Below are positions 12,855 to 21,670 of a stretch of 32,000 nt of DNA, piece after piece. A program made the translations under genes and the position numbers. The DNA is from Neobacillus vireti (GTDB lineage: Bacteria > Bacillota > Bacilli > Bacillales > Cytobacillaceae). The notes beneath the pieces were generated by a model, which was not told the DNA's origin, did no database searches, and saw only the letters and a program-made list of their open reading frames with translations. How positions within the stretch are numbered: the first letter of the stretch is position 1; every line of letters starts with the position of its first letter. The stretch is taken from positions 124,190 to 156,189 of the forward strand of contig NZ_JBALNB010000017.1 of the NCBI RefSeq assembly GCF_036962345.1, read 5' to 3'.

Positions 12855-13538
12855 ATGTACTTTTTCAACTATTATTTCCGTTTTATAAATATTCTGGTGT
12901 TAACCTTTGTTGTAGCATTTCCCATTTTCGGGTTTGCGCTCTTCCTATTTTTTGAGCCGCAGACAGAATATCAGCTATATTTTGAAGGAAAATTCCTGGC
13001 TTTCTTTACGGTTTTTATCATTTGCTTATTTATCAGCCGGCTTCTTAATAATTTACGGCATGAAAAAGCACCTAGTAACATCATACATATTCTTTGGATT
13101 GGTCTATTAACCATGCTTCTAATTTTTTCAAGTCTGTTCGGCTTGATGATGATGAAGCAATATTTCACAGCGTTCCAAGATGACCTTCCCGTTCAAACGA
13201 AAAGTACGTTGGCACAGGTCATTCCCATCGAAGAGGAATTATTCGGACCAATCGACAACAGTTTAGTTGGTCAGATTCCATACAATGCACGCGGTAACAT
13301 GCACCGATATGGGATTCAACTCATTGATACCAATCATCAGGTCTACCAAACCGCCTACTTTGATTCATTAGATGACTATACCTTTACACTTAAAAAATTA
13401 AGAGGCGAGGTCGGCAATACTATCATCATTGACCTGCTGCCAAAATCAAAGCGAATTGTTTCCATTGAGGTTCCAACTGAATCTGGGCCATTCTATGAAA
13501 ATGAATTTCTATCAAAAGGAGAAGAAGGGAGCTTTTAG
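12855..13538 (+). CDS. Membrane protein (3 TM plus C-terminal soluble domain), unknown function
   Basis: I prefer ATG at 12855 (SD GGGGTGGA) over the track start at 12825. The N-terminus has hydrophobic helices and the C-terminal half is soluble. Confidence 0.6.
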   Translation: MYFFNYYFRFINILVLTFVVAFPIFGFALFLFFEPQTEYQLYFEGKFLAFFTVFIICLFISRLLNNLRHEKAPSNIIHILWIGLLTMLLIFSSLFGLMMMKQYFTAFQDDLPVQTKSTLAQVIPIEEELFGPIDNSLVGQIPYNARGNMHRYGIQLIDTNHQVYQTAYFDSLDDYTFTLKKLRGEVGNTIIIDLLPKSKRIVSIEVPTESGPFYENEFLSKGEEGSF

Positions 13539-16500
13539 CTGGCCCCTTCTTTTTTTTGCGGAAAGTGGTATTCCTTCCTTTTCATCGTATTTCCTTCAAT
13601 TGTCTGTAATTTGTCCCCATTCCAGTACAAACCAATCATCGGTTCATTGGTATAAAAAAGCGCTGTTTCTTTTCCTTCTGTAAGCATGAAAACCTTTAGC
13701 CAGTTGCCCAGCCCCACAGCTAGATAGTTCCCCGTTTCATCCCAAGCCAGCAGGGAATTCGCACCCAATACTTGGCCAAACCGCTGAATCCTTTGTAAGT
13801 TTGCTTTCTCACTTTCTTGCTTGGCCATGTCTTCTAAACTAGCTATCTTCTCATGCGGCAGCAACATAATATCATGTAAATAGTCAGCAAGCGCATGTGA
13901 TACACCTGTTGGGAAGCAATCAAGCTGATGGACAACTTGCTTCAATTGGACCTGAACAACAATGAATTCAAACCGCATCCCTAAAAAAGCAATTTGTTTG
14001 CTATCATGGCTCCATTCATGGTTTTCCACCAATTGGTTTAAGCTTCCCTTGGCGATTAATTTTTCGTTTATTTTTCCCTTTTTTGTACCCGCAATCTGAT
14101 AAACAAAAAATTGATTGCCAATGCAAATAGACAAGTATTGACCATCCGGACTCCACTTCATAAGAATTTGCCCCTCACTTTCAGGGCCAGCATCCAGCAT
14201 CCAGCTCTTCCCATCATTTGTATTCAGATCGATCAAATCTATCAACCCGTCAGCGTGTACAATACAAATCACTTGTCCGTTCGTTGACCACCGTGCCGTA
14301 ATGATTTCACTACTTGATGTAAACGTCTTTTTTACATAACCGCTCCGAATATTCATGATCCACACTTGATCTTTTGTCCCGAACGCTGCCAATTTTTCAT
14401 CCGCAGATAGGTGACAAAACCGGATGTTCCCTGATTTAAACGGCTGATATTGAATGATAGAGTCCTCTTTGAGATTATGAATCTGCATGTATTGACCTAG
14501 ATGCCCTGTCGCTAAATAAGATTTTGATGAAGACAGCGAACTAGAAATGATCAACGAATCGATAAATTGGGTATTAACTTGTTTGGCAGCAAAGATGTCT
14601 TCTACCTGTTTGGATAAGGCTTTTCTCCGTGGTATGAGTACATCAAAGGCTCCAGCCAATCTGTTCAGCCAGTCTGCATAATGGGCAAACACCCATAATG
14701 GATGGGTATAGGCCCAATCAACCTGATCACCATTGCTGCTTTTGGCATCCAGCTGGCGGAAATCCCATATCGTTACCTTTCCGTCAACGGTAATCGTAGC
14801 AAGGAGCCCGTCCTTAAAATCGATTGTCAGCAAGGTTTCGGAAGCTGGCAAGGCAAGCCGCAGCTTGCCATGTCCAGATTTTCCCTCCCAAACAAAGATT
14901 TCGCCTTTATCTAAAACTGAAAGAATTTTCGTTTGATAAAAATAATGCCGGCCGATTTCCAAACCAATGGTACTATCTTCCCTTACGCCGCGTTCAATAT
15001 TCCAAACCATGATTCCAGTGCTTTCACTTGTCCATAAGAAGCCCTCATCGTCATAGTACATGTAATGATAGAGAGAGGTATCTGGCATGAGTTGATATTT
15101 CGAGCGCAGCACTTTCTTTTCGGTCTGGTTATGAACATCCCAAATCACCATTTTTCGATAATCTGAACTAAACTTTGCTTGATACCAGATCGCGAGTTCA
15201 TCCCCATCACGTCTCCAGGCTAATTGAAGAACGGCCTGATCGATGGGCTTACACGTAACCTTCTCTTGGGATGGCAGATGGATGATTTCAACTATCCCTT
15301 TCTCTGTGCCAACGGCTAGGTCTTCACCATTCGGCCTCCAAGCTAGATTTAAGATGGTCTCTTCTACCTGTGTCTCGTAAACACACGTAAAAGTAGATGA
15401 TTCCAAGATACTCAGTTTATGGTTACTGGCAAGCGCTAGGAGATCCTCCTCCTCCGAAAAAACAACGTGTTTAATCGTACCAATTCCCGGATAATGCTGA
15501 TTGATTTCTTCGCCTGTATAGATATCCCAAATTTTAATAACGTCGTCATGAATGGTTAATAATTGCCTGCCATTTGGATGCCATTTACAAAAAGATAAAT
15601 CAATATCTGGCAATTGAAAGGTATGTTGATAATAATCTAAATCAAGATCCTGACCTTGATTGGAAAGAAGATATTGGATACTTTTCTCTTCATACCAGCG
15701 TTTTGCCTCACGAAATACCTTTGAACCTTCAGGCATTCTGATCGCAAATGGTAAAATTTGCTCTGGGAACTGCACAAGTAAACTATGGTGAATTTGACAA
15801 AAACGTGAAAAATCATCTGCATACTGTGTGGAATGCCTGGAACCTTCCTGCAAGTTTTTCAGATTTTCATAGTCTCGCAGTAAATCATGAGAAAGTTTTG
15901 TTTGTATCTTTGACTGGAGGAAGTTGAAATCTGTTAACAGGCTTTCCATTTGTCGATCATATCCTGACTGATACAATTGGAGTGGAAGTTCGAATGCCTT
16001 GCGATGATTCGGAATCTGACTTTCTTCTCCGTCCAAAAAATTCTGCTTATCTTGAAAATAGTCGGCGATTTTTTCATGAAAATCTTGCTTTAAATAGGTC
16101 TCTTTAATTTTCCGGCCAATTTGACGGTGGTAAAAGCTATAGATATAGGAACCATTCTCATTTCTCTCCATCAAATAGGGCTCAAGATCATTAAACAAGC
16201 GCGCCCAAATGACTACGGGCAAGTTTTTCCCGAGATACTCATGCTTAGCCTTACTATAAAAATCTTCCATTACATCACTGTTTTCCGATAACAATGCAAG
16301 TAACTCAGCCTCTTCCAAGCCGTTCCTTGAGGCTGCCAAAAGGCCGAACACATGGTTGATTAAGACAGATCCATGGTTCGATGGATGGGACAATCGCTCA
16401 AAAAACTGCTCTAATATTCCATCAATGCTAGGGAGAAGAGGTCGCTTCTCTTGAAAGGAGGTCCATAATTTCACCTCTTCAAATGCAAGCTTTAAATATA

Positions 16501-20770: not shown

Positions 20771-20800
20771 AGTCTAAATCCTTTCTAAAAAATGAACACT

Positions 20801-21670
20801 TTATTTGGATTTTAAAATTAATTTATCATATTTACCATTGACATAGTTCTCAATCGTCACTGGCAGCTTACCACGATAATCCGGGTGGCTGCTATAATAA
20901 TTCAAGTGGATTTCATTCTCATTTGGCAGATGGGATACGGCTGCCCACATATAGGTATCATTGTACATAATGATTCCATAGTTGATGGATGCTAAGCCGC
21001 GAATGGAACCAGTTTTCACTGTCGCACCAAAAGGATCCAAATTCTCTTCGTCGTATATATACATGAGGTTTTCCGTAAAGAGAGAATAATCTTCCCCTAC
21101 TAACTCTCGAAATCTAGAATCTTCATCCGCTGAAGCAAACACACTTCCTACTAAAGATTTTTGAACAGATTTAGTTTCGCCCTGTTTATATTCACCAGTA
21201 AAAACCACACCCATTCCTGCCCAGTTATAACAGGATTGAGTCACCTTTTCAATTTCAATCTGATTATGCTTGTTCGTAAACCAAACGGTACATTCTTCTT
21301 CCTCCGTTCCGTAATCTTCCGAAAGCCTTCCAGTAGCCCGTTCACCATAAATCGTTGCCGTTCCCGCCAATTCCCCAATGTTAACTCCGCTAAGGCTTGT
21401 TAAACTGAAAGAAAAGTCTGTGGCTGTTTCGTCTGTTATCGTTAACGTCCCCGGAGAGGATTGACTATTCCGGCTCCATTCTCCTTCCCATGACATGGTG
21501 GAAGTTCCTTGGTTTGCTGATTCTTCAAGATTAGGAGATTGCTCGGTTGAAGCAGGAAGATAGATGACAGTAGGAGCACTATTCGTTGCACTTACGAGTA
21601 GATATGAACTTATTGCTAGAAAGAAGATCATTACGCCTAATAGACTGATTGTTATCGCTCTGTATTTCAT
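20801..21670 (-). CDS. Secreted or membrane-anchored protein, unknown function (first gene of the operon)
   Basis: An N-terminal signal anchor (AITISLLGVMIFFLAISSYLLV) is followed by a soluble domain. GGAGG lies upstream. The gap to the next gene is 30 nt. Confidence 0.65.
   Translation of the reverse strand: MKYRAITISLLGVMIFFLAISSYLLVSATNSAPTVIYLPASTEQSPNLEESANQGTSTMSWEGEWSRNSQSSPGTLTITDETATDFSFSLTSLSGVNIGELAGTATIYGERATGRLSEDYGTEEEECTVWFTNKHNQIEIEKVTQSCYNWAGMGVVFTGEYKQGETKSVQKSLVGSVFASADEDSRFRELVGEDYSLFTENLMYIYDEENLDPFGATVKTGSIRGLASINYGIIMYNDTYMWAAVSHLPNENEIHLNYYSSHPDYRGKLPVTIENYVNGKYDKLILKSK

Follow-up and report, generated by a model that had tools for sequence, protein, structure and literature searches.

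NIR-bearing NLR proteins and a Neobacillus vireti gene cluster

Two lines of work, both presented in 2026 preprints, describe the systems that come closest to a gene cluster of Neobacillus vireti found on a stretch of 32,000 nucleotides (nt), which is referred to here as the window (NCBI RefSeq assembly GCF_036962345.1, contig NZ_JBALNB010000017.1, positions 124,190 to 156,189 of the forward strand) and which encodes an NLR-like protein of 1515 amino acids (aa). The first line concerns the domain DUF4062, renamed NIR, a TIR-like NADase with a catalytic Glu that acts as the defence effector in Avs2, Vulcan, Vesta, Swarozyc and Evangelion, that forms the N-terminal domain of NWD1, NWD2 and TEP1, and whose genes are enriched near defence genes (20% versus 3.9%). 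The NLR-like proteins that carry it, namely PsAvs2, the bacterial 'TEP1-like' NACHT-WD40 proteins and human NWD1, NWD2 and TEP1, have in common with the N. vireti protein that a DUF4062 domain stands at the N-terminus, a STAND NTPase in the centre and a set of repeats at the C-terminus, and probably also the conserved Glu of the domain; human NWD1, NWD2 and NPHP3 displayed no NADase activity in vitro. The second line concerns phage RyR proteins, which either bind (sponges) or cleave (the RyDEP glycosidase) 2'cADPR, 3'cADPR and cADPR (cyclic forms of ADP-ribose, ADPR) and use for this purpose an H/W/H/D pocket common to the animal RyR Repeat12. None of these preprints connects the two subjects, and the 2026 DUF4062/NIR papers make no mention of RyR, ankyrin or membrane partners.

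In its domain content, the N. vireti protein is a further member of the NIR-NLR kind; what distinguishes it from the described bacterial NIR systems, which are single genes or the two-gene Vesta and act by NAD+ depletion, is that it has conserved gene partners. A similar distinction applies to the bNACHT proteins, which likewise combine a NACHT module with C-terminal sensor repeats and are antiphage in the cases tested: their genes are only rarely found in operons, and these are poorly conserved (Kibby et al.), whereas the N. vireti NLR gene sits in a conserved, translationally coupled cluster. Gene content and gene order show that the NLR has been inherited together with, and is translationally coupled to, a 180-aa membrane protein (g180) and an ankyrin-repeat lipoprotein, and that it is co-inherited also with two further membrane proteins (g237 and g123), a stand-alone RyR protein (g101) and a channel-like RCK-RyR protein of 651 aa. 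By the same kind of evidence, RyR-domain genes accompany NIR-NACHT genes in many phyla, and the RCK-RyR family adjoins NLR-like proteins that bear either a NIR or a TIR domain. The reading that we tentatively favour, with confidence somewhat short of even, is that the cluster encodes a membrane-associated, multi-component NLR-type system of about 9-11 genes (~10012-24235), in which an NAD-derived product would be read or buffered by the RyR proteins; a function in defence is what we infer from homology and context. The features concerned are the following.

10012..11967, minus strand: RCK-RyR protein, 651 aa; transmembrane (TM) helices, tandem RCK/TrkA_N, C-terminal tandem RyR repeats
11974..12279, minus strand: g101, stand-alone RyR protein of 101 aa; Repeat12-type, PF02026
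12402..12773, minus strand: g123, small membrane protein of 123 aa; ~4 TM segments by hydropathy; first gene of the RyR unit
12825..13538, plus strand: g237, 237 aa, convergent; ~4 TM segments and a C-terminal soluble domain
13535..18082, minus strand: NLR-like protein, 1515 aa; NIR/DUF4062 - NACHT - HTH_NWD1 - APAF1_C - WD40
18066..18608, minus strand: g180, membrane protein of 180 aa; overlaps the NLR start by 17 nt
18624..19391, minus strand: ankyrin-repeat lipoprotein, ~254 aa; start overlaps the g460 stop (ATGA)
19388..20770, minus strand: g460, 460 aa; ~9-10 TM segments by hydropathy
20801..21670, minus strand: g289, signal-anchored extracytoplasmic protein of 289 aa; single N-terminal hydrophobic segment
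21721..21749, minus strand: promoter-like site GTCACA-17-TG-TATAAT, directly upstream of g289
21860..24235, plus strand: 406-aa lipoprotein (g406) and 380-aa secreted protein (g380), divergent; signal and lipobox seen

Domain architecture of the NLR-like protein

The 1515-aa protein comprises NIR/DUF4062 (~aa 1-300), NACHT (340-503), HTH_NWD1 (555-666), APAF1_C (666-795) and WD40 (~830-1515), which is the same domain order as in NWD1 (DUF4062-NACHT-WHD-helical-WD40). All the underlying Pfam matches exceed their cut-offs: DUF4062 at residues 9-98 (PF13271, 37.8 bits against a cut-off of 24.7, E 2.2e-9), NACHT/AAA_16/nSTAND1 at ~311-542 (41.3 bits against 26.7 for the NACHT family PF05729), HTH_NWD1 (34.4 against 27), APAF1_C (35.4 against 22.8) and WD40 propellers at ~830-1380 and beyond (71.9 against 22.9 for ANAPC4_WD40, with further propeller matches). 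They thus bear out the initial annotation, made from the letters of the window, in which this protein had been called a DUF4062-like/P-loop/WD40 protein. The orthologues show no variation in the Walker A motif GESGVGKT (K351) or, in the Walker B motif hhhhDGLD, at the acidic positions.

Several observations bear on the head of the protein. Its residues 8-125 match the solved TIR-like domain of human TEP1 (11gz_A; phmmer, E 2.4e-12), and in the alignment of NLR orthologues (A3) hardly any variation is seen over the first 100 residues or in the motif SATEHEIxxGAF, whose E188 and E190 are invariant; across 45 family members E190 is at least 90% conserved. SATEHEI resembles the SVTEMEV of TEP1 around E1008, a motif match that spans a ~75-residue insertion and is not a gapless alignment, and E190 is thus probably the catalytic Glu, the counterpart of TEP1 E1008. 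Since DUF4062 is known as a TIR-like NADase, the effector would lie within the NLR itself, and we infer that its NIR head cleaves NAD+. Among the four divergent orthologues introduced below, NIR is the best conserved part (56-67% identity) and WD40 the least conserved one (23-45%), as expected for a conserved effector joined to a fast-evolving sensor.

How, then, should this protein be classified? An exact-sequence look-up of it returned no record; its nearest database relative, 100% identical, carries the annotation N. vireti. The Avs and other named STAND models of PADLOC v2 give only P-loop-level matches to it (E 2.7e-4 or weaker), and filing the protein as Avs was rejected because no system-specific PADLOC model fits. 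The TIR, TIR_2 and ThsB_TIR profiles find no match among the window proteins, the related domain there being DUF4062. The N. vireti system is therefore not Thoeris in the strict sense, having no ThsB-type TIR, and not Avs, having no model match; the earlier remark that the arrangement was not recognised as any named system stands.

Junctions and coding status of the central genes

Both the list of open reading frames (ORFs) and direct reading place five minus-strand genes at 13535-21670, exactly where the initial annotation had put them, and most of the junctions it described were recovered too. A gap of 30 nt separates g289 from g460, the TGA of g460 is embedded in the ATGATGATG start cluster of the ankyrin gene, with GGAGG ahead of the cluster, and 15 nt lie between the ankyrin gene and g180. 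The 17-nt overlap of g180 with the NLR gene was likewise confirmed, but not the location of the NLR ribosome-binding motif inside it: this GGAGG lies at 18095-18091, 8 nt upstream of the ATG, and so falls within the g180 coding region just outside the overlap. The predicted topologies agree with the earlier description for g289 (anchored), g460 (then given ~10 TM segments) and the ankyrin lipoprotein (lipobox LMLTGC; Pfam Ank_2, E 2.4e-16), and only in part for g180, which had been given 5-6 TM segments and has four clear hydrophobic segments by hydropathy, or five TM segments on sequence reading.

The promoter-like site ahead of g289 (21749-21721) is the top minus-strand match in a scan of 9700-24600, as a consensus match only; terminator-like matches within the five-gene unit are weak and no more numerous than in shuffled sequence. 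Same-length orthologues of all five genes occur in relatives at 78-93% identity, and dN/dS values against N. niacini of 0.17-0.30 for the five genes (g289, 0.28) imply that these are real coding genes; over all eleven genes of the cluster the range is 0.15-0.42 (g237, 0.21). The view that the five genes behave as one translationally coupled unit is supported. By hydropathy, at least 9 of the 11 cluster genes encode membrane or extracytoplasmic proteins.

Two details of the overlaps deserve mention. The g180 C-terminus AK[VI][KEQ] (18066-18082 in the window, and also in the divergent loci L007, L008 and L009) is conserved where it overlaps the invariant NLR start MPRSSK, read in another frame; it is dictated by that start and provides an example of overlap-constrained sequence. 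At the other end, the stops of the NLR gene and g237 overlap by 4 nt in the window (13535-13538) and in N. niacini, and by 11 nt in locus L006, which leaves no room for a terminator between them, so that transcription from either side runs into the other gene.

Conservation of the cluster in relatives

Homologues of g460 number only three in a search of 5.8 billion proteins, at 84-90% identity and in the same gene order; this was a word-index search, which misses relatives below ~30% identity. As such a finding alone would be mere synteny, the informative cases are four divergent NLR orthologues, those of L006 (52% NLR identity; the locus ends at a contig end), L007 (49%, metagenomic), Planococcus sp. 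CAU13 (L008, 39%) and Neobacillus cucumis (L009, 38%), in which partners were called by tblastn and profile searches. The ankyrin, g180, NLR and g237 genes are present in all four, with identities of 37-49% for the ankyrin orthologues and 31-49% for those of g237 (alignment A1), and the g180 family keeps an invariant DPWWNQQL-type loop (alignment A2). The 17-nt overlap is kept in three of the four lineages (L007, L008 and L009). Positional and weak sequence homologues of g123 were found in all four, g101 RyR orthologues in three (L007, L008 and L009) and the RCK-RyR gene in two (L008 and L009). Orthologues of g460, at 24-30% identity, occur in L006, L007 and L009, and tblastn and profile searches found none in the Planococcus locus. 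Those of g289 are known from L001-L005, L007 (36% identity) and L009, that is, from two of the divergent four, and in N. cucumis the gene has been relocated and adjoins the RyR gene. The N. cucumis set is rearranged, yet lies within ~8 kb, and the Planococcus cluster, which belongs to another family, has different flanking genes. Throughout, the divergence of the NLR and that of its partners run in parallel.

A gene set that is kept across divergent loci and after the N. cucumis rearrangement implies that the unit is real, and larger and more modular than five genes. The boundary drawn by the initial annotation, at five genes, has accordingly to be given up: g460 is missing from Planococcus and g289 has moved in N. 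cucumis, whereas g237, g123 and the genes for the RyR and RCK-RyR proteins, all outside its coordinates, show at least equal conservation. Its expectation that the genes co-occur across genomes holds in every divergent locus for the ankyrin, g180 and NLR genes and fails for g460 in Planococcus. The genes g406 and g380 are peripheral, less consistently associated members; the g406 orthologue of N. cucumis lies upstream of g460 on the same strand, and in L007 a g380-like gene lies upstream of the g289-like gene.

How widespread is this arrangement? When 185,579 species genomes were scanned, two NIR motifs picked out 75 loci, and the only full-length NLR orthologues detectable by the two motifs were those of N. 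niacini, N. cucumis and Planococcus sp. CAU13. Not one of the envelope partners came up when the remaining 72 NIR-NACHT loci were searched with profiles, and their confinement to a handful of Bacillales marks them as a lineage-specific elaboration; the proposed coupling of the NLR to envelope partners consequently holds among the Bacillales orthologues and not in those other loci. The families themselves are nearly orphan. Pfam, NCBIfam and PADLOC scans of g289, g460, g180, g237, g123, g406 and g380 and of their divergent orthologues gave nothing above threshold, and the g237 family has six representatives among 1.84 billion proteins; one long g237 match (P0147) is a Big_13 repeat protein, was judged probably repeat-driven and was not used.

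RyR domains next to NIR-NACHT genes

The stand-alone protein g101 scores 118.9 bits against the Pfam RyR family (cut-off 27.4) and matches RyR R12 repeats and the Bacteroides thetaiotaomicron protein 3NRT. Its residues H34/W37/H59/D76 have the same spacing as H75/W78/H100/D117 of RyDEP and H129/W132/H154/D171 of RyR Tad, and it is on this agreement in spacing with two phage proteins from the literature that the proposed equivalence of the pocket residues relies. In the 44 host RyR domains of the sampled loci, the four positions are kept in 44 (H), 38 (W), 36 (H) and 37 (D) cases, and the RCK-RyR and g101 proteins appear to retain the residues of a predicted cADPR/ADPR-binding pocket. The likeness to the phage RyDEP glycosidase and the RyR Tad sponge thus comprises the same family (PF02026), the H/W/H/D set at identical spacing and the form of small stand-alone, dimer-type proteins. 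The two groups differ in setting, since the phage proteins are viral counter-defence, whereas the N. vireti RyR proteins are host-encoded and conserved beside a putatively NAD+-processing NLR; moreover, the host domain also occurs joined to a membrane RCK module, to an AAA+ ATPase or to a RelA/SpoT-SLOG protein.

This association extends far beyond the Bacillales. Of the other 72 NIR-NACHT loci, 25 have a RyR-domain ORF, and in 12 cases it lies no more than 500 bp from the NLR gene; relative to uniform placement in the flanks, the binomial P is 7e-10 to 1.5e-6. At least eight phyla are represented, namely the Chloroflexota, Planctomycetota, Verrucomicrobiota, Actinomycetota, Bacteroidota, Lentisphaerota, Pseudomonadota and Bacillota. 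In them the domain takes several forms: fused to an AAA+ ATPase (~900 aa, 15 loci), to a TM-TrkA_N protein (10 loci) or to RelA/SpoT-TPR-SLOG (L062), or as a stand-alone protein of ~100 aa (8 loci). Judged by its distribution, the RyR domain, which does not figure in the initial annotation, is an evolutionarily deep partner of NLRs, unlike the envelope proteins of the Bacillales.

Two of the fusion types were looked at individually. The ~900-aa protein, encoded in L013, L015, L030, L056 and other loci (Chloroflexota, Planctomycetota and others), combines an AAA+ ATPase with a large domain at its N-terminus and with RyR repeats in tandem; its gene is often followed on the same strand by that for a 'GVTGHR' homologue and then by the NIR-NACHT gene, and the family appears to be undescribed. 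The L062 protein (6820-9867; 1016 aa), encoded 83 bp upstream of the NIR-NACHT gene, joins RelA/SpoT, TPR, SLOG (LSDAT_prok) and RyR parts, so that two different nucleotide-sensor-type domains reside on one alarmone-synthetase-like protein; its RelA/SpoT part matches the PADLOC candidate PDC-S33 (1e-31).

The RCK-RyR protein and its neighbours

The 651-aa protein has a Pfam TrkA_N match, and its C-terminal RyR match is weak and below the cut-off in the window copy; a Pfam RyR match is listed for its homologues P0128, P0133 and P0135. In the N-terminal TM region, ALYSTFRLFLLDVDPVF stands in register with the pore helix and filter of K channels, without GYG, and this pore-like motif is nearly invariant in the RCK-RyR family (alignment A4). 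An AlphaFold2 (AF2) model (pLDDT 83, pTM 0.74) yielded in Foldseek the GsuK channel as best match (E 1.4e-9, ~610 aligned columns), followed by Slo1, MthK and TrkA, at low TM-scores (0.3-0.5); the GsuK structures include NAD- and ADP-bound forms. The predicted fold thus resembles GsuK, MthK and Slo1 in having a TM pore-like region and tandem RCK domains, and the model agrees with a tandem RCK fold attached to a pore-like domain. RCK channels have, however, a TVGYG filter; a selectivity filter of this type is absent from the 651-aa protein, which has FLLDVDP in its place (FRLFLLDVDPVF at the equivalent position, nearly invariant in the family), and the protein was rejected as a K+ channel on this account. 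A sequence search of the PDB with the 651-aa protein and a search with the p182 family both returned nothing, and a metagenome scan with the RCK-RyR alignment yielded two short loci only.

When the search was reversed and started from the RCK-RyR protein, all seven loci obtained adjoined an NLR-like gene, six of them one with TIR or NIR. Four of the sister loci (L085-L088, from Cytobacillus gottheilii, Metabacillus litoralis, Bacillus shivajii and Priestia megaterium) have no NIR-NACHT gene; there the RCK-RyR homologue lies beside a ~760-aa protein composed of TIR_2, a P-loop and helical repeats, and TIR_2 proteins were found in L093 as well. On the plasmid p121_Kiel_2759 of an Arcobacter sp. 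(L091, 46178-49901), genes for TrkA_N (324 aa), RyR (166 aa) and DUF4062-TPR (728 aa) proteins follow one another on the same strand, between a type I restriction system and recombinase/transposase genes; the NIR/RyR/RCK association is present here in a small and mobile form that would lend itself to experiments. A TIR-WD40 gene lies 6 nt upstream of an RCK-RyR homologue in a Fusobacterium record, and on a Sinorhizobium plasmid an upstream STAND-TPR gene overlaps the homologue. Comparison of these loci identifies the RCK-RyR module as the constant part, beside which the putative NAD-processing NLR swaps between TIR and NIR.

The four TIR-type loci also hold genes for a CBS protein, a ~330-aa protein without a family name and a membrane SH3_3 protein, together with either a small RyR gene or one for a ~180-210-aa 'GVTGHR' protein; no PADLOC model matches these partner proteins.

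What do these arrangements have in common with Thoeris? In both, a TIR-superfamily domain, in N. vireti a putatively NAD+-processing one, is encoded beside a membrane protein with a nucleotide-binding domain, predicted as such in N. vireti, and the sister loci have a TIR-NLR in place of the NIR-NLR. In N. vireti, by contrast, the producer would be a NIR domain embedded in the NLR and not a short ThsB, and the candidate sensor would be RyR/R12. Thoeris type X combines TIR with an ion-channel effector, its signal being unknown (10.64898/2025.12.03.692087). The text of the survey of 29 Thoeris types and the supplementary text searched with it make no mention of RyR, TrkA or CBS.

A possible pathway and its alternatives

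In the reading that we favour, these elements form a pathway. The WD40 region would sense a trigger and the NACHT module would oligomerise, whereupon the clustered NIR domains would cleave NAD+; the product, either ADPR itself or a cyclic or otherwise modified form of it, would be received by the RyR domains with their H/W/H/D pocket. Gated by this ligand, the channel-like RCK-RyR membrane protein would then be the effector and cause ion gradients to collapse. The small RyR protein would buffer or hydrolyse the basal signal and thereby set a threshold. The envelope proteins (ankyrin, g180, g460, g289, g237 and g123) may hold the NLR at the membrane and perhaps link it to something that happens at the envelope, for instance the adsorption of a phage, the injection of DNA or damage to the wall. 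In attaching an R12-type domain to a channel-like protein, the putative effector recalls the animal RyR. Two eukaryotic channels respond to these nucleotides, TRPM2 to ADPR and RyR to cADPR, and a comparison of their gating with the 651-aa protein is an analogy.

A number of observations weigh against this pathway. Every NIR domain characterised so far hydrolyses NAD+, with ADPR and nicotinamide as products, and exerts its effect through NAD+ depletion without need of a downstream receptor, and the characterised RyR-domain proteins are all phage counter-defence factors and not host sensors. A Foldseek search of the PDB with the AF2 model of the NIR region (residues 1-330) gave generic alpha/beta-hydrolase and Rossmann matches and no TIR, and was uninformative. 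The 651-aa protein has no K+ selectivity filter, so that a conducting role for it is conjectural. About two-thirds of the sampled NIR-NACHT loci have no RyR gene in their available flanks, many RyR partners (the AAA+-RyR proteins) are not obvious toxins, and adjacency in conflict islands can join independent systems. Within the window, no known defence genes or mobile-element borders were seen adjoining the cluster, PADLOC v2 found no system among the proteins, and a search revealed no counterpart of the CBS-domain gene (~241 aa) that comes after RCK-RyR in N. niacini, in N. cucumis and in each of the four TIR-type loci; N. vireti may have lost it by local rearrangement. As for the envelope proteins, co-inheritance and predicted topology are all that suggests a role for them.

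The first of these points is the starting point of the alternative that survives best, which we nonetheless consider unlikely. According to it, the NLR alone depletes NAD+ in the manner of abortive infection, as PsAvs2, Vulcan and Swarozyc do; the RyR proteins would not be receivers but host regulators, either homeostasis factors or brakes that remove ADPR-type products by sequestering or hydrolysing them, and the envelope proteins would tune or localise sensing. Not only have all NIR domains tested so far this activity, but the stand-alone RyR proteins also retain the catalytic pair H/D of RyDEP, and dispensable regulators such as VstB and MisB are known from defence operons. What this account leaves unexplained is that RyR turns up time and again joined to modules of an effector-like or output kind (RCK channel-like, RelA/SpoT and AAA+), a pattern that befits a sensor domain rather than a scavenger, and that RCK-RyR stays constant while TIR and NIR swap.

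Could the cluster serve a purpose other than antiviral defence? A device that signals across the envelope, be it in stress, development or kin conflict, with an NLR-like switch to report on the state of the envelope, would suit the predominance of membrane and extracytoplasmic products (at least nine of eleven genes), the chromosomal location with synteny within Neobacillus and no mobile-element borders seen, the lack of a PADLOC match and the inactivity of NWD1, NWD2 and NPHP3 as NADases in vitro. It is made quite improbable by the very patchy distribution of the orthologues (three other species representatives among 185,579, as far as the two motifs detect them), by the rapid divergence of the sensor end, by the position of L007 among Pycsar-like and other NIR-STAND genes, by the plasmid-borne Arcobacter trio between a type I restriction system and recombinases, and by the enrichment of NIR genes near defence genes. 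That the membrane genes are lineage-specific hitch-hikers, the five-gene 'system' being local synteny around a single-gene NLR, is very improbable, for although close relatives share a much wider synteny, the membrane families are nearly orphan and g460 and g289 are not universal, the ankyrin, g180, NLR, g237 and g123 genes persist at 38-39% NLR identity in Planococcus with different flanks and after the N. cucumis rearrangement, the 17-nt overlap is conserved, partners and NLR diverge in parallel and all the genes are under purifying selection.

If the favoured reading, a membrane-associated NLR-type system with RyR proteins that read or buffer an NAD-derived product, is true, the cluster would be one of few examples of a NACHT protein wired firmly to partners in the membrane or outside the cytoplasm, and would prompt one to ask whether NLRs are able to keep watch on the cell envelope. 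The cluster also points to a new effector class, the RCK-RyR channel-like protein, and to a new membrane-linked, Thoeris-like defence pathway, and the N. vireti locus and its relatives offer a testable idea for the role of host RyR domains. A bacterial model with the exact NWD1/TEP1 domain order may also help with these poorly understood human proteins. A much wider proposal, possible but doubtful in our estimate, is that RyR/Repeat12 is an ancient host-side receptor for NAD-derived immune signals of the ADPR/cADPR type. TIR- and NIR-bearing NLRs would signal to RyR effectors in a prokaryotic counterpart, and perhaps the ancestor, of cADPR-RyR and ADPR-TRPM2 signalling; phage RyR sponges and glycosidases would be captured host sensors, and the Bacillales would have wired the pathway to envelope proteins so that the NLR senses cell-surface events. 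An evolutionary root for animal cADPR/RyR biology is possible on such grounds.

Further observations on the loci

In the metagenomic locus L007, the cluster is flanked (1979-5458 and 15785-21272) by a second DUF4062-STAND-TPR-SEC-C gene, an Apyc1-like MBL hydrolase and a PycTM protein. The end of a Guanylate_cyc+TPR-S gene overlaps the start of the small RyR gene there, so that this RyR gene is paired with a cyclase and not with an RCK-RyR gene. In L004, an ENA metagenome contig 90-93% identical to the window, the g289, ankyrin and g380 genes are each called as two fragments, and the NLR, g180 and g460 genes are intact; these fragments could be assembly indels or the onset of decay of the extracytoplasmic partners.

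ARAGORN predicted no tRNA within the window, which thus has no tRNA-linked island signature. Next to the RCK-RyR gene, the interval 8440-10011 comprises ~800 bp without a sizeable ORF and a cupin gene, and beyond it, at 7653-8438 on the minus strand, lies a gene for a 261-aa protein of the IS200-like/REP-associated Y1 transposase type with a C-terminal HTH.

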